DNA of 64,000 nt from Candidatus Cloacimonadales bacterium (GTDB taxonomy: Bacteria > Cloacimonadota > Cloacimonadia > Cloacimonadales > JAFGVF01), in assembly GCA_963678315.1 (NCBI GenBank), contig OY782781.1:2237482-2301481 (forward strand), given 5' to 3'. Positions 1 to 53,669 of this stretch are shown one piece after another; the stretch's first letter is position 1, and every line of letters starts with the position of its first letter. Below the pieces are notes generated by a model, which was given only the letters and a program-made list of their open reading frames with translations, did not search any database and had not been told where the DNA came from. A program made the translations under genes and the position numbers.

Positions 1-1246
1 AGCCCTTATCAAGAATAACAGAACCTTTTGTGGTAAATTCAGCAATTCCTGCTTCAACCAAGACTTTTACATTCTCAAGTTTCATTGGAATCATTTGAGT
101 AGCAACAAATCTATTCCAGATAAGACTATACAACCTAAACTGTTCAGGTGTTAACGAAGCTTTTATTGATTCAGGAGTTTTATAAACATCGGTAGGTCTG
201 ATTGCTTCATGAGCATCTTGTGCTTTAGATTTAGTCTTATAATTACGAACTGTTGGATTAAGCTTTTCAGCTCCAAAACGTTCTTTAATTAAACTTCTAC
301 AAGATTCTTTCGCTTCATCAGCAATTCTTAGAGAGTCAGTTCTCATATAAGTTATCAAACCGCTATGCTCTCCATTAATAGAAATGCCTTCATACAATTC
401 TTGAGCTATTCTCATTGTTCTTTTAGGACTAAATTTAGATATTCTTGAAGCATCTTGTTGTAATGTAGAAGTTATATAAGGTGCAGGAGGATTAACACTC
501 TTTTTATTTTTAACTATATCCAAGAGTTTTGCTTGGGACTTTTGAATCCCTTCAACAATAGCAAGAGCTTCTTTTTCATTAGCAACTTTTTGCTTCTTAC
601 CGTTAATTTTGGTGAGTTCTCCTGAAAAATCAGCTAATTGGTCTTTCCAAAACTTTGCTGAAATCTTCCAATACTCTTCAGGAACAAAAGCATTTATTTC
701 TTCTTCTTTTTCACATATCAATCTAAGAGCAACAGACTGTACTCTACCAGCACTTAGTTCTTTAGCGATAACTTTCCAAAGAATAGGACTAACCTTATAG
801 CCAACTATTCTATCAAGAATTCTCCTCGCTTGTTGAGCATTAACTTTATCCATATCAATATTACCAGGATTTTTAATAGCTTCTCTAATAGCTTTTTTGG
901 TAATTTCATTAAAAGTAATTCTATGAACAGGCTTTCCTTTAATCTCTTTCTTTAGCAACTCTTGTAAATGCCATGCAATTGCTTCCCCTTCTCTATCATG
1001 GTCACTTGCTAAATATATTTCAGGTGCATCTTTAGCTTTGCTTTTTAACTCTTTTACTATCTTAGTCTTTGTTCTATCAGTTACATATCTTGCTTCAAAA
1101 TTCTTTTCTACATTGATACCTAAAGTTGTTTTAGGTAAATCTCTAATATGCCCCATTGAAGCAGCAATTGTATATTTATTATCTAAGAATTTACTTATTG
1201 TCTTTGCTTTGGCAGGTGACTCCACAATAATCAGTTTTTTAGCCAT
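1..1246 (-). CDS. topA: DNA topoisomerase I, N-terminal part (CDS runs off the window start)
   Basis: Own translation of the minus strand from ATG at 1246: MAKKLIIVESPAKAKTISKFL...ASMGHIRDLP...DHDREGEAIAWH, the classic TopA Toprim N-terminus. No stop before position 1, so absent from the ORF track. Confidence 0.9.
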   Translation of the reverse strand, partial: MAKKLIIVESPAKAKTISKFLDNKYTIAASMGHIRDLPKTTLGINVEKNFEARYVTDRTKTKIVKELKSKAKDAPEIYLASDHDREGEAIAWHLQELLKKEIKGKPVHRITFNEITKKAIREAIKNPGNIDMDKVNAQQARRILDRIVGYKVSPILWKVIAKELSAGRVQSVALRLICEKEEEINAFVPEEYWKISAKFWKDQLADFSGELTKINGKKQKVANEKEALAIVEGIQKSQAKLLDIVKNKKSVNPPAPYITSTLQQDASRISKFSPKRTMRIAQELYEGISINGEHSGLITYMRTDSLRIADEAKESCRSLIKERFGAEKLNPTVRNYKTKSKAQDAHEAIRPTDVYKTPESIKASLTPEQFRLYSLIWNRFVATQMIPMKLENVKVLVEAGIAEFTTKGSVILDKG

Positions 1247-1253
1247 TTTTCCT

Positions 1254-1685
1254 CTAGTGTTCGTATTTGAAAATACTATTTATATTTTTTCCATTATCTG
1301 TTAAAAGTGTTTCTATAAAGTCTTTCATTGAAGCTTGATCTACTTCTGCAAAATTAACCATAGTTATAATCTTATCCATTTTTAATTTTGAAACTGGTTG
1401 ATCTGTATTGAAATAAAGATGTAAACATAGTTGAAGTATCTTCTCTAAGCTAACATCATCTATAGAATTTATATTATACATATTCATCAGATACCCATAA
1501 GCTTTCACAGTCATTGCTCTTGATTCAATAATATCAAGTGTTCTATGGTATTTTTTCTTTACATCTTCCTTGGATATATGTTTCTTTACTAAGTCTATGA
1601 GTTGATCTTCTGTTAATCCATCAAGAAAATCTTCTTCAAATATATGCATCAAACTCTTCTTTAGTACATCCAAACTTTTCTTCAT
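1254..1685 (-). CDS. Hypothetical 143-aa protein between secA and topA
   Basis: ORF packed directly between secA stop and topA start on the same strand. No recognisable motif. Confidence 0.45.
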   Translation of the reverse strand: MKKSLDVLKKSLMHIFEEDFLDGLTEDQLIDLVKKHISKEDVKKKYHRTLDIIESRAMTVKAYGYLMNMYNINSIDDVSLEKILQLCLHLYFNTDQPVSKLKMDKIITMVNFAEVDQASMKDFIETLLTDNGKNINSIFKYEH

Positions 1686-4600
1686 TTATTCCTCATCTAA
1701 AACTTTTTTGCCACAACATTTCTTGTATTTTTTTCCACTACCACATGGGCAAGGGTCATTTCTACCTATCTTTTCAGCATTCACAATTGGCTTAGTTTTA
1801 GCTTGTGAATTAGGCATATTCATCTTAGGCATTTGCGGTTTATCTTGAGTTTCTACATTTGCTTGTTTTGAGTTGTTAAAAGAACTCATTTCATTATGCA
1901 TTGTATTAATTCTATCCATAACATCTTCTAAGTTTGCCTGAGTTACAAGAACTCTTGTAAATACTCTTTTAGCAACCTGTTCTTGAATCTCAAATATCAT
2001 GTTTTGGAAAACATTGAAACTCTCTTTTTTATATTCAATAAGAGGATCTTTGTTGCCATAAGCACGTAAGCTAATACCTTCTTGTAAAAGGTCCATCTCT
2101 CTTAAGTGTTCTCGCCAATTAGTATCAACTGTCTCTAGTAGACTACGTCTTTCTAATTCACGTTGGTTCTCTTCACCAACAATATCTTCTTTATTGTTAT
2201 AAGCTTTGAGTAGGCGTTCTTCAAACTCATTTCTGATAACATTTATATCTAAGTTATTTATATCAAAATTATCGATTTTAATTGGCACTCCAAAGTTAAC
2301 TCGAATCCAAGTTGCTATTTCATCAACCTCTTCTAATGTTGGATAACTTTCATTTTCAACAATTCTATCAATTACATTATTGATTGAATCTGTAATCATA
2401 TTAAGAATCTCATTCTTAAGATCATAACCTTGTAGAACATTATTGCGATATTGATAAATGATTTCACGTTGTGACGTCATTACCTCATCATATTTAATTA
2501 ATCTTTTTCTTATTTCAAAGTTATGTTCTTCAACTCTTTTTTGAGCTTTAGATACAGCTCTAGTCATCCAAGGATGCACGATTGCTTCATCTTCTCCTGC
2601 TCCAAGTTTAATCATCATTGGTGCAATTCTTTCAGAACCAAATAATCTCATCAAATCATCTTCTAATGATAAATAAAAGCGAGATGTACCCGGGTCACCT
2701 TGTCTACCAGCGCGACCTCTTAACTGTCTGTCGATTCTTCTACTTTCATGTCTTTCTGAACCTATAACATGTAGACCATCAATAGGTCCACCGTAAGGCA
2801 TATCATCAGTTACTTTAGTCGCTTCTTTTAAATATTCATCATGTTCTTTGGTTACTACACCGTGACCAAGCTTGATATCTGTACCACGACCAGCCATATT
2901 GGTAGCTATAGTTACAGCTCCTGCTTGACCTGCAGTAGAAACAATCTCTGCTTCTTGTTGATGATTCTTAGCATTTAACACACTGTGAGCAATCTTTCTT
3001 CTGCGAAGCATTCTGCTCAAAGATTCTGAGACATCCACACTTGTTGTTCCGACAAGTACAGGCTTATTCATGCTATGCCAATACTCAATTTCTTTTATAA
3101 TAGCTTTATATTTTTGATTCTTTGTAAGATAAATTAAATCTTCATGATCTAACCTTGTAATTTCAACATTAGTAGGAATCTCAACCACGGGGAGTTTATA
3201 AATTTCTATAAATTCGCCTTCTTCTGTAATAGCAGTACCAGTCATTCCTGCTAGTTTATCAAACTTACGGAAATAGTTTTGAAGTGTAATTGTAGCAAGA
3301 GTCTGAGAAGCTTTTTGAATCTTAACACGCTCTTTAGCTTCCAAAGCTTGGTGCATACCATCACTAAATCTTCTACCTGGCATAATACGCCCAGTGAATT
3401 CATCAACAATCATAACTTGATTTTCCATAACGACATAATCTTTTTCCTTTTCAAAAAGAGAATAAGCTTTTAGTAATTGCTTAATATTATGTTGTTTTTC
3501 ACTCTTATCCATGAATTCTTTGGTAACTCTATCCTTTTCCTGAAGCTTTTCTTCAGCAGATAAACCTTGGTTATTATCAACTTCTTGAAGCAATTCATCC
3601 AGAGTAGAAACGATAAAAAGATTCTCTTCAAATCTACCCATAACTTCTTGCCCTTTTTCAGAAAGTTCAACTGTATTAGATTTCTCATCAATACTGTAGA
3701 ATAACTCAGAATTAAGTTCATGCATCTTCTTATCTCTTAAAATAATTCCTTCAGCATCGTTACATAGTTTCTTAAGTTCTCCATCCTTCATGTACTTAGT
3801 GAATGCCTTTCCTTGAGGAGAAGCATGCTTCATAAGTAATAACTGTCTTCCTACTTCGTAACTATCAATTTTATCTTGATCTAATAGAGTCTTTACTTTT
3901 GTATTAATCTGCTTTATTTGTTCAGATTGCAATTGAAATAATCTTTCTATATGAGGTCGAATTGGTTCATAAAAGTTTTTATCATCATCAACAGAACCTG
4001 ATATAATAAGAGGAGTTCTAGCTTCATCAATAAGAATACTATCTACCTCATCAACTATAGCATAATAGAAATCTCTTTGTACAAGTTGTTCTTTATTAAC
4101 AGCCATATTATCACGAAGATAATCGAAACCAAACTCACTATTCATACCATAAGTAACATCATAACGATAGATCTCTTTTTTATCTTCGAATGACATGCCA
4201 TTAACAATACAGCCAACTCTCATGCCATGGAATTCAAAAATAGGAGTCATCCACTCAGCATCACGTTGAGCTAAGTAATCATTAACTGTAACAAGATGAG
4301 CTCCTTTTCCAATTAGTGCATTTAGAAAAAGTGGTAATGTAGCAACTAAAGTTTTACCTTCACCTGTAGCCATTTCAGCGATTTTACCTTGATGTAGTAC
4401 TATACCACCAATCATTTGTACATCATAAGGAACCATGTCCCATTCAACTTCATTGCCTCTAACAAGGTATTTATGTCCGACAAGTCTACGACAAGTATCT
4501 TTCACTATAGCAAAGACTTCTATCAATTTATTATCAAGAAGCTCTTGGACTTTTTCTTTTACTTCTTTACGCTTTTCATCTAATTTATTACTAAGAGAAT

Positions 4601-4844
4601 CCTTTTTACTCTCATCAGGTTCAGTAATATATTCTTCACGTTGTTTTTCTACTTCTGCAAAGTCCTTCTTAAGTTCTTCTTGAAGTTCACTTTTTATATT
4701 ATTGATTCTATCTTTTATTTGCTCATCAGTTTCAGATGCTAATGTTTCATAGATGTCATTGATATCGCTGATTATTGGATATATATTCTTTAAGAATTGC
4801 TCTTTTTTATCACCAAAAATCTTTTTCAATAGTTTTTCAAACAT
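1686..4844 (-). CDS. secA: Preprotein translocase ATPase SecA
   Basis: DEAD-like motor domain and C-terminal zinc finger [14 protein letters not shown]. The ORF track begins at a TTG (4871). The more likely start is ATG at 4844 ([11 protein letters not shown], the canonical SecA N-terminus). Confidence 0.95.
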
Positions 4845-5126
4845 ATTTATACCACTTTTTATTTTTATCAAGTCATAATCGTTATTTTTATCTTTTTGTC
4901 AAACTAATATTGATTAACATTTATATATTATTATATATAAACACTTTAAGAATTAACTGTCGCCAAAGCATTATCCCTAATTCGTCATGGTCAAAAGCTA
5001 TAATAAAAAAAATCTATACATTATATGCACTATAATAAGTCAGTATTTTTATATAAAAGAAAAGAGAGTTAAGGTATGTCCAAAACTCTCTATAATTATA
5101 GTGTAAATTATCAGTAGAAATATATT

Positions 5127-6407
5127 CTATTTCATAAATTCAACAAAGACATCAGTCACGTATTTATGGTCTAACGTTCCCATAGTCTCTCTAGTTGAAT
5201 GCATAGCAAACATTGCATTGCCTATATCAACAGTTTTGATACTCATTTGAGCAGAACTAACAGGTCCTATTGTTGAACCAGAAGGGATGTCTGAGCGGTT
5301 AATCATCTTTTGATAAGGTACTTTAACTTTTTCACATAATTCTATGAAATAAGAAGAACTTAAAGAGGTTGTAGCATATCTATAATTAGCACTTAATTTT
5401 ATTACTGGACCTTGATTAACTTCTGGAGCGAATGCACTATCATGCTTGCTCACATAGTTAGGATGTACAGCATGCGCTTGATCAGCAGAAATCTGGAATG
5501 ACTTGTTAATTGCAATAGAATGATCTTCACTATCTTCTTTCCAAGATAGACTAATTCTTTTAAGAATCATTTTCATAAATGTTGAATTAGCACCTTGTAA
5601 AGTTTGAGAACCTATCTCTTCATTATCAAAGAAAGCACCAACAACAGTTGAAGTGTTATCTTTAACATTTACAAGTGCACTTAAGATTGCATGACACATA
5701 CCTAAATCATCTATTCTGCCAGAAGAGATTAATTCATTATCAATACCATAAATCATAGCTTTTTCAAATGGAATAAAGAATAAATCATAATCAAGAATTT
5801 TATCTTTATCGATACTGAGTTCTTTAGCAATCATTGGTTCAAAGACTTCACTTTGCTTAGATACACCTAATAATACTGGTAGCTCAGTTTGCTTATTGAT
5901 TTCAATACCTTTATTTACGGTTCTATTTAAGTGAATAGCAAGATTTGGAATTATACCAATAGGCTTGTTAATAAACAAAGATTTTGATTCAATGTTTTCT
6001 TTATCATTCTTATAGGTTACACGTCCAGCTACACATAGTTCTCTATCAAACCATGTATTGATGATGGGACCGCCATATACTTCTACAAAAATCTTGTGAT
6101 AATTTTTATATTTTGTTTCTGAACCAACTTTTACTTTTAAAGCAGGGCTATCAGTATGTGCTCCAGAAATCTTATATCCTGTCTTAGAAGGATTTTCTTC
6201 ACCATTAACAAAAGCAATAACGGCAGAATCGTTTCTTACTACAAAATATTTTCCATTTGGTTTAAGTTGCCATTTTTGGTCTTCATAAAGTTTCTCAAAA
6301 CCATTGCTTTCTAATCTATTTACTATTTCTATTGTTGCTTGAAAAGCTGTTGGACTATTGTCTAAAAATACTTTTAGGTCTTCAGCTAATTCTTTTTGTT
6401 TAAACAT
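5127..6407 (-). CDS. M18-family aminopeptidase (aspartyl aminopeptidase-like)
   Basis: 426 aa with the GAHTDSP motif and metal-binding His/Asp/Glu layout of peptidase family M18. Confidence 0.75.
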   Translation of the reverse strand: MFKQKELAEDLKVFLDNSPTAFQATIEIVNRLESNGFEKLYEDQKWQLKPNGKYFVVRNDSAVIAFVNGEENPSKTGYKISGAHTDSPALKVKVGSETKYKNYHKIFVEVYGGPIINTWFDRELCVAGRVTYKNDKENIESKSLFINKPIGIIPNLAIHLNRTVNKGIEINKQTELPVLLGVSKQSEVFEPMIAKELSIDKDKILDYDLFFIPFEKAMIYGIDNELISSGRIDDLGMCHAILSALVNVKDNTSTVVGAFFDNEEIGSQTLQGANSTFMKMILKRISLSWKEDSEDHSIAINKSFQISADQAHAVHPNYVSKHDSAFAPEVNQGPVIKLSANYRYATTSLSSSYFIELCEKVKVPYQKMINRSDIPSGSTIGPVSSAQMSIKTVDIGNAMFAMHSTRETMGTLDHKYVTDVFVEFMK

Positions 6408-6559
6408 GATAACCTCATTTTATTTTATTTTCTTAACTTTATTTGATTGCATGCTAATTTGTAAAGTATTTTCTTAAACTCTTTTTATCTTATACTTTTT
6501 ACTAATTAACAAATAAATGTCACTTTTAGTTACAATACTAAAATAAATCTTGAATTTCA

Positions 6560-7213
6560 CTAAATTAAATTGAAGTTCATATATGGCACATCCTTGAGAT
6601 CTTCTATTTTGGGAACTAGGATAATATCATTGCAATTAGTTAGATGCTGAATTATCTCAATATTTTCTCTTATCATTTGAGAATCAATACCCTTACTATC
6701 AGACATAATGATATTTATTTTACTAATGTTACAAAATTGTAGAGCTTTTATAGACAAAATAGTGTGGTTTTGCGTACCTAAACCAGCGCGAGTAACTAAA
6801 ATCACTTCTGCATCTAATTCTTTAATTAAATCTATCATACAGTAATCTTTTGTTATTGGTACAAAGAGTCCGCCGGCACCTTCACAAATCAAGATTTCTG
6901 AATCATTAGCAGTTCTTTTAATTTTATTCACAAGCTCTTGAATATCTATAGAATAATTATCATCTTTAGCAGCATAATAAGGGGCTTTAGGATTAGTAAA
7001 TATTTTATAGCACTTTTTGGTTATGTTTCCATTAGACTTACCTAGAACTTTCAAAGCATCGCTATCTTCACTATAAACATTTTTGCAGCCGGTTTGTAAC
7101 GGCTTAAAATAATCTACATCTATATTGTTTTCTTCAAAGTAATGATAAAGCAATTTCGCTATAATGCTCTTCCCTACATCAGTATCTGTTCCTGTAATAA
7201 ATAGAATTCTCAT
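6560..7213 (-). CDS. bioD: Dethiobiotin synthetase
   Basis: N-terminal P-loop GTDTDVGKS, 217 aa, last gene of the bio operon, overlapping bioF by 4 nt. Confidence 0.85.
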   Translation of the reverse strand: MRILFITGTDTDVGKSIIAKLLYHYFEENNIDVDYFKPLQTGCKNVYSEDSDALKVLGKSNGNITKKCYKIFTNPKAPYYAAKDDNYSIDIQELVNKIKRTANDSEILICEGAGGLFVPITKDYCMIDLIKELDAEVILVTRAGLGTQNHTILSIKALQFCNISKINIIMSDSKGIDSQMIRENIEIIQHLTNCNDIILVPKIEDLKDVPYMNFNLI

Positions 7214-8322
7214 TTTAAGGCTTCCTTTAATGCTTTAATTAAAACATTTACATCTTCAGTCGTGTGATTTGAAGTTAAACTTATTCTAAGCATCGCTTTA
7301 TTATAATCAACAGTAGGATACTTTGCAGGGAGAACTAATATGTTACTCTTGTACAAACTTTCATACACTTGATTACATGACCTAATTGAATCCATTGGTA
7401 TGGATATAATTTGATGTTTACCTGTGTATTTAATAATGTATTTTTTTAAGGTATGTTTTGCATAGTCGACTATGCTAGCTAGTTTCTCTCTCTTGCAATC
7501 TTGCGAGTGAACATATTCAATTGTAGAATCAAGTGCATAGAAGTATTTTTCTGGGAGTGCAGTCGTATAGATTAATTCTTCAGCAAAATTTATTAAATAA
7601 TCTTTAACCACTTTGGGACATAAGAGGAATCCTCCAAAAAGTCCATAAGCTTTTCCAAAAGTACCAATTTTAATAACTGCTTTATTGGTAAGTCCTAAAC
7701 CATTTTGTCCTAAAACACCGACTGCATGGGCTTCATCTACAATAAATTTATGACTAGCTCTTAATAAATCAACGTCATTTACTGATTTCCCTGACATACT
7801 AAACAATGATTCCGTTACGATGTAGAAGTCTTCAAAAGACTTTGATTTCTTAAGTAAGCTTTGAATATCACAATGTCTATAGCTTCTAATTGTTGCTTCA
7901 CTTTGCTTTAATCCATTAACTATACTATTATGAGATTGCTTATCATAGAACACTTTATCTTTGTTAGAAAATAGATGCTTAAAAGTTGCAATATTTAATT
8001 GGTATCCTGAATTAAATAGTAAAGCTGACTCATAATTATACATTTCAGCTAACTTCTCTTCAATATCATTAATTATTGACAGATTCCCTGAAACAAGCCT
8101 TGATGCAGAACTTCCATAATTTCTATCTTTTGTAAGTTCATCTAAGTGACTCCTAAACTTCTTATCTGAAGTTAGACCTAAATAATCATTAGATGTGAAA
8201 TTTAAGTATCTTGTCTTTCCTATATACGCATATCTGTCAGAAGGTTTAGTAATTGTCTTTAGTTTTCTATATAGATATTGTTCTTGTCTACTTATTAAAG
8301 AATATTCTAAATGCTTAAACAT
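7210..8322 (-). CDS. bioF: 8-amino-7-oxononanoate synthase (class II PLP aminotransferase fold)
   Basis: 370 aa alpha-oxoamine synthase family in bio operon context. The start overlaps the upstream gene. Confidence 0.8.
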   Translation of the reverse strand: MFKHLEYSLISRQEQYLYRKLKTITKPSDRYAYIGKTRYLNFTSNDYLGLTSDKKFRSHLDELTKDRNYGSSASRLVSGNLSIINDIEEKLAEMYNYESALLFNSGYQLNIATFKHLFSNKDKVFYDKQSHNSIVNGLKQSEATIRSYRHCDIQSLLKKSKSFEDFYIVTESLFSMSGKSVNDVDLLRASHKFIVDEAHAVGVLGQNGLGLTNKAVIKIGTFGKAYGLFGGFLLCPKVVKDYLINFAEELIYTTALPEKYFYALDSTIEYVHSQDCKREKLASIVDYAKHTLKKYIIKYTGKHQIISIPMDSIRSCNQVYESLYKSNILVLPAKYPTVDYNKAMLRISLTSNHTTEDVNVLIKALKEALK

Positions 8323-8723
8323 TTGAACCTCTTATGCATAAGTATATTGCTTTTATTATATAGTCCTTCATTAATAAGACCTATATATATCATTGATTTT
8401 GTTGTTTGTTGATTGATAATTGTTGTCACTTCATATAAAATTGCATTTGCGACTATTTCTACTACTCTTGCAAAAGTAATAACTACAATATTACTTTCAA
8501 AATCATAATGAGGATATTGTAGCTCTTTTATTGATAATAGAAAAGCATGTTTATCAAAATTCATTAAATATCTCGCATGTATTCCAGCTGATTGAGCAAG
8601 GAATTCAATAAAATTAAAATCATTCCAATCTTTCATAAGATATTTTGTTTTAATTGATTGAACATCGCAAGATAGAATTTTATTAATCATTAATGAAGTT
8701 TCTAGATTCGTGTTAATTTTCAT
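8307..8723 (-). CDS. Small hotdog-like protein (possible acyl-ACP dehydratase/thioesterase) inside the bio operon
   Basis: 138 aa, translationally coupled (overlaps) with the KAS gene upstream and bioF downstream. The assignment is weak and rests on size and context only. Confidence 0.4.
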   Translation of the reverse strand: MKINTNLETSLMINKILSCDVQSIKTKYLMKDWNDFNFIEFLAQSAGIHARYLMNFDKHAFLLSIKELQYPHYDFESNIVVITFARVVEIVANAILYEVTTIINQQTTKSMIYIGLINEGLYNKSNILMHKRFKCLSI

Positions 8724-9891
8724 TTAAATGATACCTTATGATAACTACAGAATTTTGACCTCCAAAGCCCATACTATTAACAAGTATAGTAAACGATTTC
8801 TTTTCTTTACTTAATTTCATGTTTTTTTTGAGTATATTGAAATCATCAATTGATGACTGACTAAAATTCGATTTTGGTATAAAGCCCTTATCTAAACATG
8901 ATAGTAATAAACATAATTCAGTAAGACCTGAAGCTGCTGATAAATGACCAATAATACTCTTCATAGTCATAACAATAGGTTTATAATCTCCGAATATATT
9001 TTTAAGAACCTTCTTTTCAGCAAGATCATTTGCTTCTGTTCCTGTAGCATGGGCAAGCACTAAATCTATTTGACAAGAACTTAAGTCTGCTTGTCTCAGA
9101 GCGTTAATTATTGCTTGTGTTAATCCTTTACCTTCTGGATTAGGTGAAGTTAAAGAAAAGCAATCCATTGTCGAGGAATGAGCTATTAATTCAATCTTTG
9201 TTTTATTGTACTTCTTAGCAATTTCTTCATTTGCGATAATCATAGATGATCCACCTTCTCCAGGAATAAATCCAAAATCTTCTTGATGGTAAGGTTGATA
9301 TTGACTTCTTGTTAGTTTTAAAGCACCGATTGAATTATATGCGTCTAGTCCATTCCCAGTCAATCGACTATCTCCACAACTACACAATACATAAGCAGAC
9401 ATATTATACTTGATTCTATCGAATGAAGTTCCTAATGCTTGCAGAGATGCCGAACAAGCAGTTCCTAAGCTTATACTCTCACCACAAATACCTGTTCTTT
9501 TTGCTATTACAGAAGCCGCAGTATTCGGTAAATATTGAAGAATCCATGCTTTCTTACTATTATCTGAATTAGCAATTGGAAAATTACCAAAGTTTGGTCC
9601 CGCTCCAACAATAATTGATCCATTTCCCAAGTGTATATATTCTTGATTAAGTCTCTTCCAAACAGAAAGAGCACTAGCTACAGAAAATAGAGCACCTCGA
9701 TTTAGATATCTTTTTTCTGGAAGTCTTTGGACAAAATCTTTATAGTTGAAACTTGTAATAGGAAATGTTCTAATAGAATCCTTTGATGTATAGATTGTTT
9801 GGTCAAAACATTCTAATGATGCTAATATCTCTTTACCATTATTTCCTATATGAGTTATTAATGAATAATCAAGGATAAATACTTTGTTCAT
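8713..9891 (-). CDS. Beta-ketoacyl-ACP synthase (KAS I/II-like) embedded in the bio operon
   Basis: 392 aa with the active-site Cys motif GTACSAS and thiolase fold signatures (MFACQ.., HATGT, GHLSAASG). Confidence 0.8.
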   Translation of the reverse strand: MNKVFILDYSLITHIGNNGKEILASLECFDQTIYTSKDSIRTFPITSFNYKDFVQRLPEKRYLNRGALFSVASALSVWKRLNQEYIHLGNGSIIVGAGPNFGNFPIANSDNSKKAWILQYLPNTAASVIAKRTGICGESISLGTACSASLQALGTSFDRIKYNMSAYVLCSCGDSRLTGNGLDAYNSIGALKLTRSQYQPYHQEDFGFIPGEGGSSMIIANEEIAKKYNKTKIELIAHSSTMDCFSLTSPNPEGKGLTQAIINALRQADLSSCQIDLVLAHATGTEANDLAEKKVLKNIFGDYKPIVMTMKSIIGHLSAASGLTELCLLLSCLDKGFIPKSNFSQSSIDDFNILKKNMKLSKEKKSFTILVNSMGFGGQNSVVIIRYHLNEN

Positions 9892-10286
9892 ATCTGTCTT
9901 TGTTTTGCATAGATGTAATCAACAATATCTGATACTTTTAACACTGGTCCATTACTTATATCTTCAAGGATATCATTAATTCTTTCTTTGGACAAATGAG
10001 AGTATTTCTTTTCTAACTCAAAAAAAAGCTCTTTATTCTCTGATTTATATCTCACAATATCAGTCCTTAGATTTTTTAAGAAGATGATATCGGAGCTAAA
10101 AAAGGATGTGTTACTAGCTAAGGTAAACTCTTTTTTTATATCAATCGCTAACTCCATTAAGTCGATTGATTCAGCTTCTAGCTCTCTTATTATGTAAGTA
10201 TCACTGCTAATTACATTGATATCAATATCTAGTAAATCTGAGATAATTTCTTTGAGTTTTATATAAATTTCTTTTTTATTTAACAT
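9888..10286 (-). CDS. Acyl carrier protein-like protein with C-terminal extension
   Basis: The N-terminal ~80 aa resemble ACP, with an ELEAESIDLMELAIDI motif (phosphopantetheine Ser in DSL/ESI context). Total length is 132 aa, longer than canonical ACP. Confidence 0.6.
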   Translation of the reverse strand: MLNKKEIYIKLKEIISDLLDIDINVISSDTYIIRELEAESIDLMELAIDIKKEFTLASNTSFFSSDIIFLKNLRTDIVRYKSENKELFFELEKKYSHLSKERINDILEDISNGPVLKVSDIVDYIYAKQRQI

Positions 10287-11250
10287 TATTAAATCCTTTA
10301 TCTAAATTAATTATATTCCCATGCATTAACCAAGTTTCTTCCTTAAGAAATAGAGCCATAAATGATGTAATCTCTTCAATTCCTAAGACCTTGTCTTTAG
10401 ATAGACTGACTTGCATATCATTATATCGACCACTCTCTATATATGTTGGTCTAATAATAATTGACTTAACACCCTTTTTTCTGAGTTCATTGCCTAGTGC
10501 TAAGTATATGTTTTCTATAGCAGTTTTACTTGCTAGGTAGAATGATTGTCCTTGATTAAATCTATTTACTGCATTTGATGAGACGTAGATTAGCCTACCA
10601 AAGCGTTTTATTCTCATAATATTACTTACTTCTCTCAAAAGTATAATCTTATTTGTAACATTGATTCTTAGGTATTCTTCAATATCAGCATTTAAAGATG
10701 TAGTAATAAGACTTTCATATCTTGAATGCAAAAAATCAAAAACATAAGCAAATTCTTTATCTTTGAAATAATCAATATTACTCAAAGAATTAAGATCTAC
10801 CTTTATCCATTCTACATTCGTGTTTACTTTTAAAAGAGGCTTATTTTTATTATAGCTAGCAACAACTTTATACTTAGTTAAATCAATTTTATTTATAAGC
10901 TTTTGACCAAGTTCACAAGATCCACCTAGTATTAGTACTCTTGTTTTTAAGTATATGGACTTATAAAAATATATTTTTCCTTTTGCATAAACTTGTGTAT
11001 TGTCATAGAGAGTACAAGTAGCAAGTTCTTCTTTAATCTCTATTTTTGCGCTATATATCTTTGGTTTAGCAAATTTATAAAACTTAAACCTAGAGATATT
11101 TTTTATATGATTAGGCTCAATTTCATTCTTTATAAAATTTATAAATGAAGCTATAATCAATGATCCTGGAACTAAAGGATTACTTGGAAAATGCTCCTGG
11201 TATATTAAATCTTCTTCATTGAAGTGAAATGTACTCTTTAATTGAAACAC
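10276..11250 (-). CDS. Fusion protein: FabZ/FabA-like hotdog dehydratase (N-terminal) + SDR-family ketoreductase (C-terminal)
   Basis: The N-terminus has EHFPSNPLVPGSLI (the FabZ HFPxxPVxPG catalytic His motif). The C-terminus has a Rossmann ILGGSCELGQ and an SDR catalytic YLASK (YxxxK). Confidence 0.7.
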   Translation of the reverse strand: MFQLKSTFHFNEEDLIYQEHFPSNPLVPGSLIIASFINFIKNEIEPNHIKNISRFKFYKFAKPKIYSAKIEIKEELATCTLYDNTQVYAKGKIYFYKSIYLKTRVLILGGSCELGQKLINKIDLTKYKVVASYNKNKPLLKVNTNVEWIKVDLNSLSNIDYFKDKEFAYVFDFLHSRYESLITTSLNADIEEYLRINVTNKIILLREVSNIMRIKRFGRLIYVSSNAVNRFNQGQSFYLASKTAIENIYLALGNELRKKGVKSIIIRPTYIESGRYNDMQVSLSKDKVLGIEEITSFMALFLKEETWLMHGNIINLDKGFNNVK

Positions 11251-12608
11251 TATCCGATAACCTCAAGAATAGAATCATAAGTAATGTTTAGCAATCTTTC
11301 AAAGTCATCTTGACTAATTGATAGAGGAGGCATTATAACAATGATATCTCCCAATGGACGTAAAATTAGCCCCTTTTCACGTGCTTTAAGTATAATTTTA
11401 TGGCCTACCTGGTCTTTTTGAGGAAAATTCTCTTTTGTTGTTTTTTCTTTTACTAGCTCAATAGCTATCATAATTCCTTTATTTCTTATATCTCCAACAT
11501 GTTTTAACAAAGCAAATTTATACTTAAAGTCATCGAATAATTGTATATTTTTTGCCACATTATCTAAAGTCTTTTCCTCTTCGAATAAATCTATGTTAGC
11601 TATTGCTACTGCTGAAGCAAGAGCATTACCTGTAAAAGTATGTCCATGATAAAAAGTTCTGCATTCTTCAGGCTCACCTAGAAAAGCTTCATAAATTTCT
11701 TCAGTTGTAACTGTAGCTGCTAATGGAATATATCCACCAGTAATACCCTTTGCCATACAAATTATATCAGGCTTTACATCTTCTTGCTGGCAAGCGAACA
11801 TTGTACCTGTTTTACCAAATCCTACTGCTACCTCATCACATATCATTAATATTTCATACTTTGTACATAGCCTTCTTACTTCTTTTAAATAACCCTGAGG
11901 ATGAACAATAAGTCCACAAGCTCCTTGAACTAAAGGCTCAATTACAAGAGCTGCAATTTCATTGTGATTGTTTGCCATGATTTCTTCTAATTGCCTAAGA
12001 CAATAATCTTTACATTCTTCTTCAGTCATACCACCATTTAACCTATAGCTATAAGGAGATTCAGCTTTGAATGAATTAAACAGTAGAGATGAATAAACTT
12101 TATGGAATAAATCAATTCCCCCGACACTTACAGATCCAATTGTGTCACCATGGTAGGCAGATTTATATGATATGAATTTTCTCTTGTTTTTAGAACCGTT
12201 TATTGATTGTTGTTGATACTGGTAAGCCATTTTGAGAGCAATTTCAACAGAAGTTGACCCATTATCTGAGTAGAATACTCTAGTTAGATTATCTGGGGTG
12301 ATTTCAATTATCTTATCAGATAATTCAATTGCTACTGAATTTGTCTGGCCTAGAAGAGTTGAATGAGATACTTTATGAACTTGATTAATAATAGCTTCAT
12401 TTAGTTTAGGATGATTATGGCCATGGACATTAGTCCATATAGAAGAAATACCATCTATATATTTTTTACCTTCAATATCATACAAATATATCCCTTCTCC
12501 CCTTTCTATAATCAAGTGTTCTTCATTATTTAATTGTTTCATTTGTGCAAAAGGGTACCACATGTTTTGCTTTGAAGACTTCATTAAATTTTCTTTTCTA
12601 GATTCCAT
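11250..12608 (-). CDS. bioA: Adenosylmethionine-8-amino-7-oxononanoate aminotransferase
   Basis: 452 aa class III aminotransferase (WYPF.., HGHNHP, DEVAVGFGKTG, PLP Lys in MAKGITGG), sitting between bioB and the fab-like genes. Confidence 0.85.
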   Translation of the reverse strand: MESRKENLMKSSKQNMWYPFAQMKQLNNEEHLIIERGEGIYLYDIEGKKYIDGISSIWTNVHGHNHPKLNEAIINQVHKVSHSTLLGQTNSVAIELSDKIIEITPDNLTRVFYSDNGSTSVEIALKMAYQYQQQSINGSKNKRKFISYKSAYHGDTIGSVSVGGIDLFHKVYSSLLFNSFKAESPYSYRLNGGMTEEECKDYCLRQLEEIMANNHNEIAALVIEPLVQGACGLIVHPQGYLKEVRRLCTKYEILMICDEVAVGFGKTGTMFACQQEDVKPDIICMAKGITGGYIPLAATVTTEEIYEAFLGEPEECRTFYHGHTFTGNALASAVAIANIDLFEEEKTLDNVAKNIQLFDDFKYKFALLKHVGDIRNKGIMIAIELVKEKTTKENFPQKDQVGHKIILKAREKGLILRPLGDIIVIMPPLSISQDDFERLLNITYDSILEVIG

Positions 12609-13536
12609 AAGTTACTAATCCTTGATCTCTTATCATTTGCTTATCCTCATCAATTGACCTTCCAGTAGTTGTTAAATAATCTCCAATCATAATTCCATTA
12701 GCTCCTGCCTGGAAAATTTTATCCTGTAGATGTTTTAATGTCTTCTCCCTACCACCAGCTATACAAATGTTAATATCTGGATTGATAACTCTAAATAGAC
12801 TTACTACCCTAAGAGCTTCTTCAGGATCCAATAACGCTTGTTTTTCTAATGGTGTGTTTGCAATAGGATTAAGAAAGTTCAATGGAATAGCATTAATATC
12901 TAACATGCTTATATACTTGGCCATTTCATAACGTTGTTCCCAAGACTCTCCCATACCAATTATTCCACCACAGCAAACTTCTAGTTCTGCTTCTTTTGCA
13001 TTTTTTATTGTTATGACAGAATCTTCAAAGTCATGACTTGAACAGATACTTGGAAAGAATGTTGGAGATGTTTCAATATTATGATGATATCTATCAAAAC
13101 CAATTATCTTTAACTTATCGGCTAATTGTTTGCTTAGTAATCCAAAGGAAGCACATAATCTTAAGTTTGTTTTTTCCTTGATTTTGCAAATTACAGGTTC
13201 AAGCCTTTCTAACTCTTCAAATGTAATATCTCTTCCACTAGTAACAATCGAAAATTGGGTTGCTCCATTATCAAAAGCTTTTGTAGCACTGCTAAATATC
13301 TGATCGTTACTTAGTAAATTGTATTCTGTGATATTAGTGTTATAATGAACTGATTGAGCACAATAGGCACAATTTTCCGGACATCTACCAGATTTTGCAT
13401 TGATTATAGCACATTGGTATATTTTATTACCATGTTTGCTATTTCTTAACAAATGTGTTTTTGCTAATAACTTATCTAAATCTTCATTAATAACATAATT
13501 TATTAATTCATAGTCTATCTCAAATTCATCTAACAT
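12598..13536 (-). CDS. bioB: Biotin synthase (radical SAM)
   Basis: CPENCAYCAQS radical-SAM Cys triad and YNHNIETS. The ORF track starts at GTG 13548. The likely real start is ATG 13536 (MLDEF...), with an AGGTG RBS 9 nt upstream. Confidence 0.9.
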   Translation of the reverse strand: MLDEFEIDYELINYVINEDLDKLLAKTHLLRNSKHGNKIYQCAIINAKSGRCPENCAYCAQSVHYNTNITEYNLLSNDQIFSSATKAFDNGATQFSIVTSGRDITFEELERLEPVICKIKEKTNLRLCASFGLLSKQLADKLKIIGFDRYHHNIETSPTFFPSICSSHDFEDSVITIKNAKEAELEVCCGGIIGMGESWEQRYEMAKYISMLDINAIPLNFLNPIANTPLEKQALLDPEEALRVVSLFRVINPDINICIAGGREKTLKHLQDKIFQAGANGIMIGDYLTTTGRSIDEDKQMIRDQGLVTYGI

Positions 13537-13541
13537 TTTTT

Positions 13542-13570
13542 TGTACACCTTCTATCTTTTAGGGTGTACA
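13542..13570 (-). promoter_or_regulatory. Candidate BirA operator (bioO): TGTACACC-N13-GGTGTACA palindrome over the bioB 5' leader/RBS. A TTGACA -35-like hexamer lies at 13590-13595 on the minus strand.
   Basis: Perfect 8-bp inverted repeat resembling the BirA site half-sites (TTGTAAACC...GGTTTACAA in E. coli), immediately upstream of bioB. Confidence 0.5.
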
Positions 13571-13856: not shown

Positions 13857-13890
13857 AAAGAGCGAGAATGTATGTTCTCGCTCTTTAAAT
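13857..13890 (-). terminator. Rho-independent terminator of the 2-oxoacid:ferredoxin oxidoreductase operon
   Basis: Minus-strand hairpin AGAGCGAGAA-cataca-TTCTCGCTCT followed by TTTTTATT, directly after the gamma-subunit stop. Confidence 0.8.
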
Positions 13891-13908: not shown

Positions 13909-14448
13909 TTAACTTTTTGCTAATTCAATACCTTTTTTAATTGCTACTAAGTTCATTGCAAGCAACTCAGGATTTCTTTTTTCTAAGAAAGCTGTTAAGT
14001 CACTTTCTAAAGTTTCATATTTAACCATATCAGTTAAGCCGATAATAATACCGATAGCTAACATGTTTAGAACTTTATCTGAACCGATTTCAGTTGCCAT
14101 TTTTGATAATGGTGCGCTGATAGTTTTAATTCCATCATAATTAGGAATATTATTACATAAATCTTCATTTGCAATAATAAATCCGCCTTTTGTTACATTT
14201 GAAGCAAATTTATCAATTGATGGTTGGTTAAGAGCAATAAGTACGTTAGGGAAAGTAACGATTGGTGATGCGATTGGGTTCTCTGAGATAACAGCTGCTA
14301 CATTAGCTGTACCTCCACGCATTTCGGGACCGTATGATGGCAACCATGAAACGTGTTTACCTTCTTTCATACCAGCTTTAGCTAAGAATTTACCTATAGT
14401 TAAAGCACCTTGTCCACCAAAACCTGAACTTATAATTTCATACATCAT
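13909..14448 (-). CDS. 2-oxoacid:ferredoxin oxidoreductase, gamma subunit
   Basis: 179 aa POR/KOR/VOR gamma-family sequence (GFGGQG...), last gene of a delta-alpha-beta-gamma operon. Confidence 0.8.
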   Translation of the reverse strand: MMYEIISSGFGGQGALTIGKFLAKAGMKEGKHVSWLPSYGPEMRGGTANVAAVISENPIASPIVTFPNVLIALNQPSIDKFASNVTKGGFIIANEDLCNNIPNYDGIKTISAPLSKMATEIGSDKVLNMLAIGIIIGLTDMVKYETLESDLTAFLEKRNPELLAMNLVAIKKGIELAKS

Positions 14449-15194
14449 TATTTCACCTCTCCTTCATCTCTGAATTGACCAATTGGGAAGAAAGGTAACA
14501 TGTTATCTTTAGCCCATTTTAATGAATCAACAGGAGAAATACCCCAGTTAGTAGGACAAGTTGATAGAAGCTCAACAAAAGTAAAGCCTTTACCTTCTTT
14601 ATTATATTGAAGAGCTTTTTTAACAGCTTTTTTAGCTTTAATAATATCAGCAGGAGATAATAATGAAACTCTTTCAATAAAGTATGGTGCAGATAAAGTA
14701 TTTAATAATTCACATACTTTAATTGGCATACCTACATCATCTGTTTTTCTACCATAAGGTGAAGTTGTTGTTTTCATTTCTGGTAATGTTGTTGGAGCCA
14801 TTTGACCACCAGTCATACCATAAATAGCATTATTTACGAAGAATACAGAGATATTTTCACCTCTATTAGCAGCATGAACGATTTCAGCAGTACCGATAGC
14901 TGCTAAGTCACCATCACCTTGATAAGTGAACACTTGCATATCAGGTCTAGCTCTTTTAATTCCAGTTGCTACAGCTGGAGCTCTACCATGAGCAGCTTCT
15001 GCCATATCCATGTCAAAAAACTTATATGCAAATACTGAACAACCAACAGGTGCAACACCAGTTGCAGTATCTTGAATTTCTAATTCGTCTATAGCTTCGG
15101 CTATCAATCTGTGAGCTACACCATGAAGACAGCCTGGACAGTAAGTAAACTGTAAATCAGTTAAAGATTTAGGTCTTGTTGCGATAACTTCCAT
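14448..15194 (-). CDS. 2-oxoacid:ferredoxin oxidoreductase, beta subunit (TPP-binding)
   Basis: 248 aa with the TPP-binding GDGD and conserved Cys cluster (CPGC...C) of the beta subunit. Confidence 0.85.
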   Translation of the reverse strand: MEVIATRPKSLTDLQFTYCPGCLHGVAHRLIAEAIDELEIQDTATGVAPVGCSVFAYKFFDMDMAEAAHGRAPAVATGIKRARPDMQVFTYQGDGDLAAIGTAEIVHAANRGENISVFFVNNAIYGMTGGQMAPTTLPEMKTTTSPYGRKTDDVGMPIKVCELLNTLSAPYFIERVSLLSPADIIKAKKAVKKALQYNKEGKGFTFVELLSTCPTNWGISPVDSLKWAKDNMLPFFPIGQFRDEGEVK

Positions 15195-15202
15195 TATATC
15201 TC

Positions 15203-16282
15203 CTATAAATTCTCTTCAATTTGTGCTTTGATTTCTTCAGGTGTAAATACTATACCACCAACTTTTCCGTAAAATTCAACTGGAATTTTACCATTAACAG
15301 CTAATTTTACATCTTCAACCATTTGACCTAAGTTCAATTCAAAAACCATAACTTTTTTAACTTTATCAGTTAAAGCATTAGCAATAGTTGAATATGGATA
15401 AGGCCATACAGTGATAGGTCTGATTAAACCAATATTCTTACCTTCTGCATTTAATTGGTCAATTGCAGATTTAACGATTCTTGAAGCAGTACCAAAGGCA
15501 ACACAAACCATTTCGTTATCAGGGTTTATATTATATTCTTCTACACGAACTTCATTTTCTTCGATTAATTTATATTTTTTACCTAAATCAATAACATGTT
15601 GTTCTAGAACTGAAGGATCAATTTCTAAAGAGTTGATTTCATTATGATGAGGAGCTTCACCTTCTTCTTTTGGATGAATACACCAATCTTTATGATCATC
15701 ACCTTGCTTAGCTATTTCTTCATCTGAAACTGCGTCTTTAAATTCAACAGGTTCCATCATTTGACCAAGCATACCATCAGATAAAATCATTACAGGTATT
15801 AAATATTTATCTGCTAAGTCAAAAGCTTCAGATGCCATATCAGCAAATTCTTGAACTGATGATGGAGCTAATACAACTGTATGATAGTCACCATGACCAC
15901 CACCTTTTGTTGCTTGGAAATAATCACCTTGAGCAGGTTGGATATCGCCTAAGCCAGGTCCACCACGTTGAACGTTAACGATAACAGCAGGAAGATTAGC
16001 ACCTGCAATATATGAAATACCTTCCATCTTCAATGAGATACCAGGAGATGAAGATGATGTCATTACTCTTTTACCAGTACCAGCAGCACCGTAAACCATG
16101 TTAATAGCAGCAACTTCACTCTCAGCTTGTAAAAAAGTACCATTAACGGTAGGCATTTTTTTAGCCATATATTCAATTAACTCACTTTGTGGAGTAATAG
16201 GATAAGCGAAATAGAGTCTACAACCTGATCTAATAGCAGCTTCAGCGACAGCTTCGTTACCTTTCATTAAAACTTTTGCCAT
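15203..16282 (-). CDS. 2-oxoacid:ferredoxin oxidoreductase, alpha subunit
   Basis: 359 aa pyruvate/ketoisovalerate oxidoreductase alpha family. Confidence 0.85.
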   Translation of the reverse strand: MAKVLMKGNEAVAEAAIRSGCRLYFAYPITPQSELIEYMAKKMPTVNGTFLQAESEVAAINMVYGAAGTGKRVMTSSSSPGISLKMEGISYIAGANLPAVIVNVQRGGPGLGDIQPAQGDYFQATKGGGHGDYHTVVLAPSSVQEFADMASEAFDLADKYLIPVMILSDGMLGQMMEPVEFKDAVSDEEIAKQGDDHKDWCIHPKEEGEAPHHNEINSLEIDPSVLEQHVIDLGKKYKLIEENEVRVEEYNINPDNEMVCVAFGTASRIVKSAIDQLNAEGKNIGLIRPITVWPYPYSTIANALTDKVKKVMVFELNLGQMVEDVKLAVNGKIPVEFYGKVGGIVFTPEEIKAQIEENL

Positions 16283-21625: not shown

Positions 21626-22582
21626 CTATTTTATAATTGTAATTTTCTTAACTTGACTCCTTTCCCCATACTTAACATTTAGAAAGTATATGCCAGACGG
21701 ATAATCTAAATTCTGAATCTGAAAATATCCTTTCTTTGATTTAAGATTGTTTTCAGAATAAACTAATCTACCTCTAAGGTCATAGAGAGACAGACTTATA
21801 TTCTTATTACTTTTTTCCATAAATTCAATATTGAAACTGTTTATACAAGGTTGCGGATATATCTGTTTGATTAGCTGATTCTGCATAGGTTCAACCTCTT
21901 GAGAATTTGACACTGTTTTATGGTAGGTTACGATTAAGTGCGGATCATATGAATTTGATGAGGTTGGGTTATTTGAATATGAAACATAATCTGCTTCATA
22001 TAGTCCTATATCATGACCTGGAGGGAATCTCAGTCTAAACTGTGAGTATCCACGTGAATGTTCTATATCATTAAGATAGCTCTCAGTAATTGGAAAGGAG
22101 ACCCAGCCAACATGACCACTATCTTGCAGAACACCTACATTGGAAGTAAGTGGTTCAAGATCAAAAACAGAAGGAGCTAAAGTCTCATACTCTATGTGGT
22201 CTATATTTACTGAGTAGGGTGTAGTGTAGTAGTGTGGCCAAACAAGATCTATCCCATTATCCCAATAGCGCCAACAGTAAAGTTGAAGTATTACATTTGC
22301 CACGACGTAATCATTGGGAACAGGAATAGTCTCGAATGAAATAAATGATCTTAATTCAAAAATACCGGTTCCAACAAACTGAGCATAACCGTAGCCAATG
22401 TCTAAAGTTGTTAGATTGGGAAAATTGTAATAATCATGATAATCCATATTATAGTATATAGTCCCAGTCATAGGATTAGGTTCAGAGTATATTGTGTCAA
22501 CAAGAACTGAGTCATCTCTATCAGCATATAATTGTAGAATTAAGCTATATAGAATTAAAAAGATTAATAGATATCTCTTCAT
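21626..22582 (-). CDS. Secreted hypothetical protein with T9SS C-terminal domain (tandem paralog 1)
   Basis: Signal peptide and C-terminal YPQPCINSFNIEF...GIYFLNVKYG...KKITIIK CTD. About 82% aa identity to the adjacent ORF. Confidence 0.7.
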   Translation of the reverse strand: MKRYLLIFLILYSLILQLYADRDDSVLVDTIYSEPNPMTGTIYYNMDYHDYYNFPNLTTLDIGYGYAQFVGTGIFELRSFISFETIPVPNDYVVANVILQLYCWRYWDNGIDLVWPHYYTTPYSVNIDHIEYETLAPSVFDLEPLTSNVGVLQDSGHVGWVSFPITESYLNDIEHSRGYSQFRLRFPPGHDIGLYEADYVSYSNNPTSSNSYDPHLIVTYHKTVSNSQEVEPMQNQLIKQIYPQPCINSFNIEFMEKSNKNISLSLYDLRGRLVYSENNLKSKKGYFQIQNLDYPSGIYFLNVKYGERSQVKKITIIK

Positions 22583-24602: not shown

Positions 24603-24612
24603 GTCTTGGCTC

Positions 24613-53612: not shown

Positions 53613-53630
53613 AAAAACCTCTTATTAGAG

Positions 53631-53660: not shown

Positions 53661-53669
53661 AATTTATTT

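Follow-up and report, generated by a model that had tools for sequence, protein, structure and literature searches.

A probable Desulfovibrio-type pimelate-supply cassette in a Cloacimonadota biotin operon, with a fused hotdog-ketoreductase protein and a predicted split dehydratase

The 64,000-nt stretch of contig OY782781.1 from a Candidatus Cloacimonadales bacterium, here called the window, carries on its minus strand (6560-13548) a biotin operon of eight co-directional open reading frames (ORFs), neighbouring ones overlapping by 1-16 nt. The order is bioB, bioA, a fusion of a short hotdog domain (HD1) to a ketoreductase (KR), a 132-aa acyl carrier protein (ACP), a Cys-His-His ketoacyl-ACP synthase (KAS), a 138-aa hotdog protein (HD2), bioF and bioD, with overlaps of 11 nt (bioB/bioA), 1 nt (bioA/fusion), 11 nt (fusion/ACP), 4 nt (ACP/KAS), 11 nt (KAS/HD2), 16 nt (HD2/bioF) and 4 nt (bioF/bioD). 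The fab-like cassette genes thus stand between bioB/bioA and bioF/bioD, within a single transcription unit. This locus is probably a Cloacimonadota member of the Desulfovibrio-type route to biotin, in which a KAS, a KR, a split dehydratase and an unlinked enoyl reductase would carry malonyl-ACP through two cycles to pimeloyl-ACP on an ACP of their own.

The features of the operon, assigned to families with Pfam and NCBIfam profiles and their curated cut-offs, are collected in Table 1. An original prediction made from the same DNA had described this tightly coupled eight-gene operon, and every ORF was recovered where it had been placed, except that the start of bioB is more likely the ATG at 13536, as in the sister-assembly gene call (312 aa), than the GTG at 13548 that had been listed. 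The domain content fared equally well: the GTACSAS protein carries both ketoacyl synthase domains, the 138-aa ORF proved in profile searches to be a divergent FabZ/FabA-type hotdog, and the protein read as a FabZ-like hotdog joined to a short-chain dehydrogenase/reductase (SDR) has an adh_short domain, a weak N-terminal FabA match, a PF22818 assignment and the FabZ His motif.

Table 1. Features of the biotin operon and its upstream boundary (window coordinates).
Feature	Coordinates	Strand	Basis and remarks
bioB, biotin synthase, 312 aa from ATG	12598..13536	-	TIGR00433 376 bits (cut-off 225); Radical_SAM + BATS
bioA, adenosylmethionine-8-amino-7-oxononanoate transaminase	11250..12608	-	TIGR00508 551 bits (cut-off 405)
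HD1 domain, fusion residues 1-96	10963..11250	-	short ApeI-like hotdog, FabZ His motif
KR domain, fusion residues 97-324	10276..10962	-	SDR 3-oxoacyl-ACP reductase; adh_short 4e-14
Dedicated ACP, 132 aa	9888..10286	-	PP-binding 23 bits
KAS, FabF/FabB-type, 392 aa	8713..9891	-	ketoacyl-synt N + C domains, GTACSAS motif
HD2, 138 aa, divergent FabZ/FabA-like hotdog	8307..8723	-	profile searches; counterpart of D. vulgaris DORF42491
bioF, 8-amino-7-oxononanoate synthase, divergent	7210..8322	-	best NCBIfam TIGR00858 288 bits (<426 cut-off); Aminotran_1_2
bioD, dethiobiotin synthase	6560..7213	-	TIGR00347 147 bits (cut-off 83)
Perfect inverted repeat TGTACACC-N13-GGTGTACA	13542..13570	-	between A/T-rich upstream region and bioB ATG
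Terminator-like hairpin	13857..13886	-	12-13 bp stem then T-run; end of upstream 2-oxoacid:ferredoxin oxidoreductase operon

The bio transcription unit is bounded on its 5' side by the terminator-like hairpin. At about 30%, G+C content is uniform over operon and flanking regions alike, and base composition thus gives no hint of recent acquisition. Of all ORFs in the 64-kb window with 120 aa or more, none encodes BioC, BioH, BioW, BioZ, BioI, BioG, BioK, BirA or a paralogue of the fab-like genes, in line with the prediction that the known pimelate-supply genes are missing here. The score of BioF, 288 bits where the model asks for 426, could reflect adaptation to an unusually long ACP as acyl donor.

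The KAS provides the clearest link to a known family. Its catalytic triad C146-H281-H316 and K311 are intact, and it aligns over its full length to FabF/FabB structures; the triad and the alignment place it, as a predicted elongating synthase of the Cys-His-His class, apart from the BioZ/FabH type. Two of its loops have diverged in a manner shared by the family, with GxGPN (96-100) in place of the FabF 'sGIGG' and GDSR (173-176) in place of the FabF 'GGtEa', and R65 is invariant. Both of these loops line the acyl pocket in FabB/FabF. Homologues of the window KAS fall into 693 clusters, the best of them 35-45% identical and labelled Syntrophales, Desulfobacterales, Syntrophobacteraceae, Magnetomoraceae and Cloacimonadota. 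In a neighbor-joining tree, the KAS proteins of bio clusters, including those of the Desulfovibrio/Desulfovibrionaceae loci L016 and L017, are monophyletic with respect to generic KAS in 100/100 bootstraps, and the window KAS thus appears orthologous to the KAS of Desulfovibrio and other Desulfobacterota bio clusters.

These relatives belong to a gene cluster with a published history. Rodionov et al. (2004) described in Desulfovibrio a biotin operon extended to include five fab-like genes, homologues of ACP, 3-oxoacyl-ACP synthase, reductase and dehydratase, and proposed a novel route to a pimeloyl thioester in place of bioC/H/G/W (PMC545781). Trotter et al. (2023), using randomly barcoded transposon sequencing (RB-TnSeq), found ten D. 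vulgaris genes to be specifically important in the absence of biotin, nine of which lie at DVU2558:DVU2565, namely bioB, bioA, bioD, bioF, DVU2560 (FabZ-like), DVU2561 (KR), DVU2562 (ACP), DVU2563 (KAS) and the unannotated DORF42491 (FabZ-like); the tenth is the unlinked nitroreductase-like DVU1220, a candidate enoyl reductase (PMC10102598). The same work noted a separate essential ACP, DVU1205, proposed two rounds of elongation from malonyl-ACP, and reported the cluster in Desulfobacterota and Chrysiogenetes only, with no mention of Cloacimonadota or of a heterodimeric dehydratase (PMC10102598). No later biochemical study of the pathway was found in the literature searched.

The search of genomic neighbourhoods that the original prediction had called for revealed the cassette embedded among bio genes in at least 17 other loci (L002-L017 and L019), identified by scanning species-representative genomes and annotating them ourselves; they include two loci of Cloacimonadota (L003 and L011). 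The assignment of the window to that phylum agrees with its SecA, all named homologues of which come from Candidatus Cloacimonadota/Cloacimonetes, the nearest 75-76% and the bulk about 60% identical. The KAS of the window pairs with that of L002 in 100/100 bootstraps; the four Cloacimonadota-like KAS group together in only 40/100, which does not establish that the gene was inherited vertically within the phylum.

A nitroreductase-family gene of about 200 aa stands between ACP and KAS in L003 (7392-7991), L004 (7269-7913), L005, L008, L009, L010 and L012, and is absent from the cluster in the window, L002, L006, L013, L015-L017 and L019. Its presence varies even within Cloacimonadota, since L003 has the gene and the window and L002 do not. 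No nitroreductase homologue was detected in the 64-kb window by tblastn or Pfam, which does not decide the question of the partner because DVU1220 of D. vulgaris also lies outside its cluster.

Two further sets of loci came up in the same scan. L009, binned as 'Methanosarcinaceae archaeon', carries at 5674-9083 a bacterial HD1-KR-ACP-nitroreductase-KAS cassette whose KAS is sister to that of a Deltaproteobacteria metagenome-assembled genome (L007), and its archaeal label is most likely a binning error and not an archaeal instance of the cassette. Six Gemmataceae/Planctomycetota loci (L051, L053, L064, L072, L075 and L082) combine a KR, one or two FabA-like hotdogs and two adjacent KAS with no link to biotin genes, and look like a separate system akin to fatty acid or polyketide synthases.

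The remaining members of the cassette depart from their housekeeping counterparts in a similar manner. The phosphopantetheine serine of the ACP is S40, within E-S-I-D, and the protein bears about 43 extra residues that include the invariant R74 and R102. The original prediction had called this length unusual; it is a trait of the whole family, for the protein measures 121-134 aa in all 13 of the other loci where an ACP ORF is present. Alignments to reference sequences place the extra segment in two ways: a global alignment sets the C-terminal 'PVLKVxDLVxY' on canonical helix IV, making the segment an internal insertion, and a local profile alignment to AcpM makes it a tail. In the KR, the catalytic residues S225 and Y238-x3-K242 and the GGS nucleotide motif are present, R267 and R275 are invariant in the family and fall in the substrate-loop region, and the nearest solved structures (Foldseek against PDB) are the 3-oxoacyl-ACP reductases MupS and FabG. 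The KAS scores 161 bits against the fabF model TIGR03150 (cut-off 493.75), the KR 46 bits against the FabG model TIGR01830 (cut-off 297.75) and the ACP 24 bits against the AcpP model TIGR00517 (cut-off 70.45), with all NCBIfam ACP models below cut-off. Since these scores lie far below the thresholds for the housekeeping enzymes, all four cassette proteins look specialised.

The two hotdog proteins appear to share out the residues of a single dehydratase. HD1 contains H20-F-P-S-N-P-L-V-P-G, the FabZ catalytic His motif, of which H20, F21, P22, P25, P28 and G29 are invariant in 11 orthologues; the window protein lacks the catalytic Glu, and the corresponding FabZ position varies among HD1 proteins (A, D, G, R, Q, H or E). 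Its profile matches FabZ structures at 1e-6 and, at 1.4e-4, the 119-aa chain 6qsr_A, which we take to be part of the aryl-polyene ApeI work; PF22818 (ApeI-like) is recorded for the window fusion and its relatives. HD2 has no His motif, and its invariant residues are E40-x-x-A43-Q44, corresponding to the catalytic Glu helix, followed by H49-x-R51. In PDB the HD2 profile has three matches at E<=10, all of them to FabZ-type dehydratases (best E 0.023), and the best one sets the segment 'lliEalAQ' on the FabZ Glu helix.

Searched locally, the HD2 profile retrieves the HD2 ORFs of the Desulfovibrio-type loci L016, L017 and L019, the counterparts of DORF42491; its further matches (2e-6 to 1e-4, the local database being small) are ORFs of about 165 aa with Pfam scores above cut-off for PF07977 FabA. 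One such PF07977 protein (…HDHFPGFPVMPECLMIEAMAQTAG…) was aligned with both families: HD1 matches it at the His motif, and HD2 matches it from the start of the Glu helix, with E40 falling on the FabZ Glu. Compared directly with hhalign, the HD1 and HD2 families showed no similarity (probability 2.4%), so their relationship is seen indirectly, through shared matches on genuine FabA-like ORFs. HD2 itself has no direct Pfam match, and a scan of 14 HD2 members gave no significant family; PF22817 (ApeP-like) appears as a weak precomputed match for the HD2 orthologue of L002 and in one of the 14 members at E 0.12.

Each active site of a FabZ homodimer draws its His from one subunit and its Glu from the second. 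Because the two residues come from different subunits, a heterodimer of HD1 and HD2 would hold exactly one complete site, and the conserved motifs indicate that the two proteins are complementary half-enzymes, with His from HD1 and Glu from HD2. We infer that they form a heterodimeric dehydratase like that of the aryl-polyene pathway, where ApeI and ApeP make up a heterodimer with a single active site and ApeI is sometimes fused to another enzyme (PMC8041823).

In L002, L004, L005 and L013, BirA-like sites of the form TGTnAACC-N14-17-GGTTnACA occur immediately upstream of the first bio gene, in agreement with the BirA regulon of Rodionov et al. (PMC545781). In the window, the perfect inverted repeat listed in Table 1 is an uncertain candidate for a BirA-type operator, proposed for its position and its perfect symmetry. 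The operon is probably expressed in response to biotin, by way of an operator that overlaps the start of bioB; this proposal is weakly supported. A promoter pair TTGACA/TAAAAT noticed by eye has a 14-nt spacer and was not called by the promoter scan, and no promoter is claimed here. An Rfam scan detected no regulatory RNA at the operon.

Taken as a pathway, the locus would encode a self-contained module, resembling type II fatty acid synthesis (FAS-II), that makes the pimeloyl thioester for BioF without the methyl-ester disguise of BioC/BioH. Ser40 of the ACP would be phosphopantetheinylated and then malonylated by housekeeping enzymes. The KAS would accept ACP-bound malonyl as primer, its free omega-carboxylate retained, and condense it with a second malonyl-ACP to 3-oxoglutaryl-ACP, as both the enzyme class and the published proposal suggest. 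The KR domain, which has its catalytic triad, would reduce the 3-oxo group, and the 3-hydroxy intermediate would be dehydrated by the putative heterodimer of HD1 and the separate HD2. An enoyl reductase from outside the operon would act next, either a nitroreductase-like flavoprotein comparable to DVU1220 or housekeeping FabI, FabK or FabV. A second round would yield pimeloyl-ACP, which BioF, BioA, BioD and BioB, going by their family assignments, would convert to biotin. In this lineage, dehydratase and reductase may be tethered to each other by the fusion, through its linker of about six residues. That a dedicated KAS, KR and dehydratase set with a private ACP supplies pimeloyl-ACP to BioF had been the core of the original prediction, which gains support from the published hypothesis (PMC545781), the RB-TnSeq data (PMC10102598) and the 100/100 KAS clade; its expectation that the enoyl reductase comes from elsewhere also fits what the window contains.

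Several points weigh against this account of the locus. The gene search covers 64 kb of a genome of about 3.0 Mb, in which bioC/bioH, bioW or bioZ could lie elsewhere and any housekeeping FAS-II could be absent. Neither the operon nor the rest of the 64-kb window encodes an enoyl reductase. What links HD2 to FabZ is a profile match at a remote level, with E 0.023 in PDB and 2e-6 to 1e-4 in the small local database, and a single-sequence AlphaFold model of HD2 has a predicted local distance difference test score (pLDDT) of 34, which is unusable. The spacer of the window repeat is 13 nt against 14-17 nt in the relatives, and the loose operator pattern occurs in the window no more rarely than expected by chance (4 real occurrences against 5.1 in shuffles). 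Finally, the literature searched holds no biochemistry for any family member, and what is said of the primer, of how many cycles are run and of the thioester product is deduced.

A bolder proposal, which we regard as tentative and rather doubtful, is that the whole family is a carboxylate-tolerant mini fatty acid synthase, in which invariant arginines in every component recognise the free omega-carboxylate and thereby replace the BioC/BioH disguise. The residues concerned could be R65 and R176 of the KAS, in loops that stand in for the 'GIGG' and 'GGxE' pocket loops of FabF, R267 and R275 in the substrate loop of the KR, R51 of HD2 beside the Glu helix, and R74 and R102 in the extra segment of the ACP. 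Together with the split dehydratase and the extra ACP segment, they could explain how dicarboxylic chains are handled without methyl-ester masking. If this proposal is true, the HD1::KR fusion would imply a single physical complex in which the KR acts together with the split dehydratase.

The origin of the primer admits a different answer. Following a BioZ-like logic, a C5 glutaryl primer on the dedicated ACP would need one elongation cycle to become pimeloyl-ACP, an option already raised in the original prediction. The route known for BioZ starts from glutaryl-CoA (PMC12625853), nothing in the sequence fixes the primer, and the genes of the window (2-oxoacid:ferredoxin oxidoreductases, peptidases and a beta-eliminating lyase) point to an amino-acid-fermenting host type in which glutaryl from lysine or other amino-acid catabolism is plausible. 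FabF/B-type KAS enzymes take ACP-bound primers, and FabH/BioZ-type enzymes take CoA primers. The window KAS is of the Cys-His-His FabF/B type and not the Cys-His-Asn FabH/BioZ type, and the cassette contains neither an acyltransferase nor a ligase with which glutaryl could be loaded. For the orthologous cluster, two rounds that start from malonyl-ACP have been proposed (PMC10102598). A glutaryl primer is accordingly considered unlikely, and malonyl-ACP remains the preferred starting point.

It is far less probable that the fab-like genes are the sole FAS-II of the organism, merely housed in a bio operon, with pimelate coming from elsewhere. The window contains no other fab genes, as this explanation would expect, but the low scores against the housekeeping models (FabF 161 against 494, FabG 46 against 298 and AcpP 24 against 70 bits), the extra 43 or so residues of the ACP and the division of the dehydratase between two half-site proteins all speak against it, as does the orthology of the KAS with that of Desulfobacterota bio clusters. 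For D. vulgaris, an essential ACP (DVU1205) distinct from that of the cluster has been described, along with a separate candidate for the enoyl reductase. The set includes no FabD, FabH or enoyl reductase, and the cassette therefore could not run fatty acid synthesis alone.

The fusion of HD1 to the KR raises the question of an artefact of assembly or sequencing, for example a homopolymer indel at a stop/start junction. The junction is rich in A/T homopolymers (…AAAAGGAAAAATATATTTTTATAAG…), and in all 17 other loci examined HD1 (about 95-112 aa) and the KR (about 230-270 aa) are separate, usually overlapping genes. Against this stands the recurrence of the window proteins on two near-complete contigs of 2.99 and 3.02 Mb from two independent assemblies. 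Over 4,972 nt (98.4% identity) the sister assembly shows 82 substitutions relative to the window and not a single indel, and it encodes the same 324-aa fusion protein with three synonymous differences in the gene. There is no in-frame ATG, GTG or TTG near the N-terminus of the KR, and both other frames are rich in stops at the junction. The identical protein in two assemblies, the lack of a separate KR start and the closed alternative frames establish that the fusion is genuine, and an error is very improbable. An AlphaFold2 model of the fusion, built with free HD1 and free KR homologues, has a pLDDT of 88 and a predicted template modelling score (pTM) of 0.73, and consists of a hotdog domain at 1-96 (pLDDT >95), a linker of about six residues and a Rossmann domain.

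The fusion is also private to this lineage. A HMMER search with the 324-aa protein in 1.84 billion cluster representatives gave 622 matches, and among the best 150 none covers both halves except the fusion itself, the rest being free hotdogs of about 100 aa (residues 1-95) or free SDRs of about 240 aa (residues 100-324). This result and the separate genes in 17 of 17 loci bear out the original description of the fusion as unusual. A separate observation concerns the two assemblies: when window positions 8276-13250 are compared with positions 1-4975 of the sister locus (L001), bioB, bioA and the fusion gene are 99.3-99.7% identical, and the ACP, KAS and HD2 genes 96.4-97.1%, with many amino-acid changes and no indels. 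This step in identity at the fusion/ACP boundary points to recombination, or to faster evolution of the final three genes of the cassette.

The least probable alternative is that the cassette makes an unrelated acyl product, such as a small polyketide or lipid, for although its hotdog pair resembles the ApeI/ApeP of aryl-polyene clusters, it sits between bioA and bioF in overlapping reading frames in an arrangement conserved across phyla, has BirA-type operators in related loci and no chain-length factor, thioesterase or tailoring genes, and its D. vulgaris orthologues show fitness defects specific to the absence of biotin (PMC10102598).

The rest of the window contains several features unrelated to the operon. 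A selenocysteine locus on the minus strand (50328-53765) comprises selB (50328-52253), selA (52254-53612) and tRNA-Sec (53671-53765; Rfam RF01852, 61 bits). Two tandem 318-aa paralogues (21626-22582 and 22606-23562, minus strand) have a C-terminal sorting domain of the type IX secretion system and no other recognisable domain, and further cargo of this system includes an endonuclease I (19497-21140) and an M14 carboxypeptidase (39377-41734). Three ORFs gave no Pfam match at the thresholds used: 36718-39276 on the plus strand (852 aa), and 32480-33076 (198 aa) and 45503-46069 (188 aa) on the minus strand. Two 2-oxoacid:ferredoxin oxidoreductase gene sets (13909-16282 and 24027-26199, minus strand) and a NuoF-like/HydB-type flavoprotein (53778-55616), whose partner is a 2Fe-2S thioredoxin-like protein (56564-57046), are characteristic of an anaerobe that ferments amino acids; the window also encodes peptidases and a beta-eliminating lyase.

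Pimelate supply is the least settled part of bacterial biotin synthesis, and the Desulfovibrio-type route is still without published biochemistry. Cloacimonadota are uncultured amino-acid fermenters of digesters and sediments, and the extension of the route to this phylum bears on predictions of vitamin auxotrophy and cross-feeding in the communities they inhabit. The compact four-gene cassette, with a dehydratase component already tethered to the reductase, offers material for reconstitution. On the bolder and rather doubtful proposal made above, and if the genome as a whole also lacks a nitroreductase-like partner, the four-gene cassette would be the minimal form of the pathway, served by a generic enoyl reductase.

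Among the known systems, E. coli also reaches pimeloyl-ACP, the substrate of BioF, through two cycles of fatty acid synthesis type from a malonyl thioester. It relies on housekeeping FAS-II and AcpP, with BioC masking the omega-carboxylate as a methyl ester and BioH removing the mask. The window, in contrast, has neither methyltransferase nor esterase and encodes a dedicated KAS, KR, dehydratase and ACP. BioZ shares with the present locus the principle of a dedicated condensing enzyme of the biotin pathway that makes the C7 chain; it belongs to the FabH type, is primed with glutaryl-CoA and leaves reduction to housekeeping enzymes (PMC12625853). The window KAS is instead a Cys-His-His enzyme of the FabF/B type with its own KR, dehydratase and ACP, and it is not classed as a BioZ.

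The ApeI/ApeP pair is comparable in that two small hotdog proteins would form one active site instead of a FabZ homodimer, in that HD1 falls in PF22818 with a profile match to 6qsr_A, and in that ApeI is also found fused to a pathway enzyme (ApeH). The pathway and substrate are different, the match of HD2 to PF22817 is weak, and the complex is here a predicted one; the fusion partner is a ketoreductase, whereas that of ApeI is an acyl-ACP synthetase-like enzyme. The Syntrophobacter/Desulfobacter-type variant (PMC10102598), represented here by the seven nitroreductase-bearing loci, has the same cassette in the same position of the bio operon, but with a nitroreductase gene between ACP and KAS that the window and L002 lack.

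The closest counterpart remains DVU2558-DVU2565 of D. vulgaris, which has bioB, bioA, a FabZ-like protein, KR, a long ACP, a Cys-His-His KAS, a second FabZ-like protein, bioF and bioD in the same order, no bioC/bioH (here within the 64-kb window), no enoyl reductase in the cluster and a KAS of the same clade (100/100). The window differs in its host, a member of Cloacimonadota instead of Desulfobacterota or Chrysiogenetes, in the joining of HD1 and KR into one 324-aa protein and in having no adjacent divergent birA; its proteins are about 25-37% identical to those of the Desulfovibrio-type loci. The pathway is therefore not new: it was predicted in 2004 and given biotin-specific genetic support in 2023. 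The original prediction was right that its biochemistry is open, but an uncharacterised route it is not in the sense of being unrecognised, and its remark on fab-like genes in bio operons of sulfate reducers, without biochemical follow-up, matches the published record (PMC545781, PMC10102598). The split His/Glu dehydratase, the conserved extra segment of the ACP and the invariant arginines are traits of the whole family that were not found described in the literature searched. What this locus adds to the known cluster is the phylum Cloacimonadota and the HD1::KR fusion.

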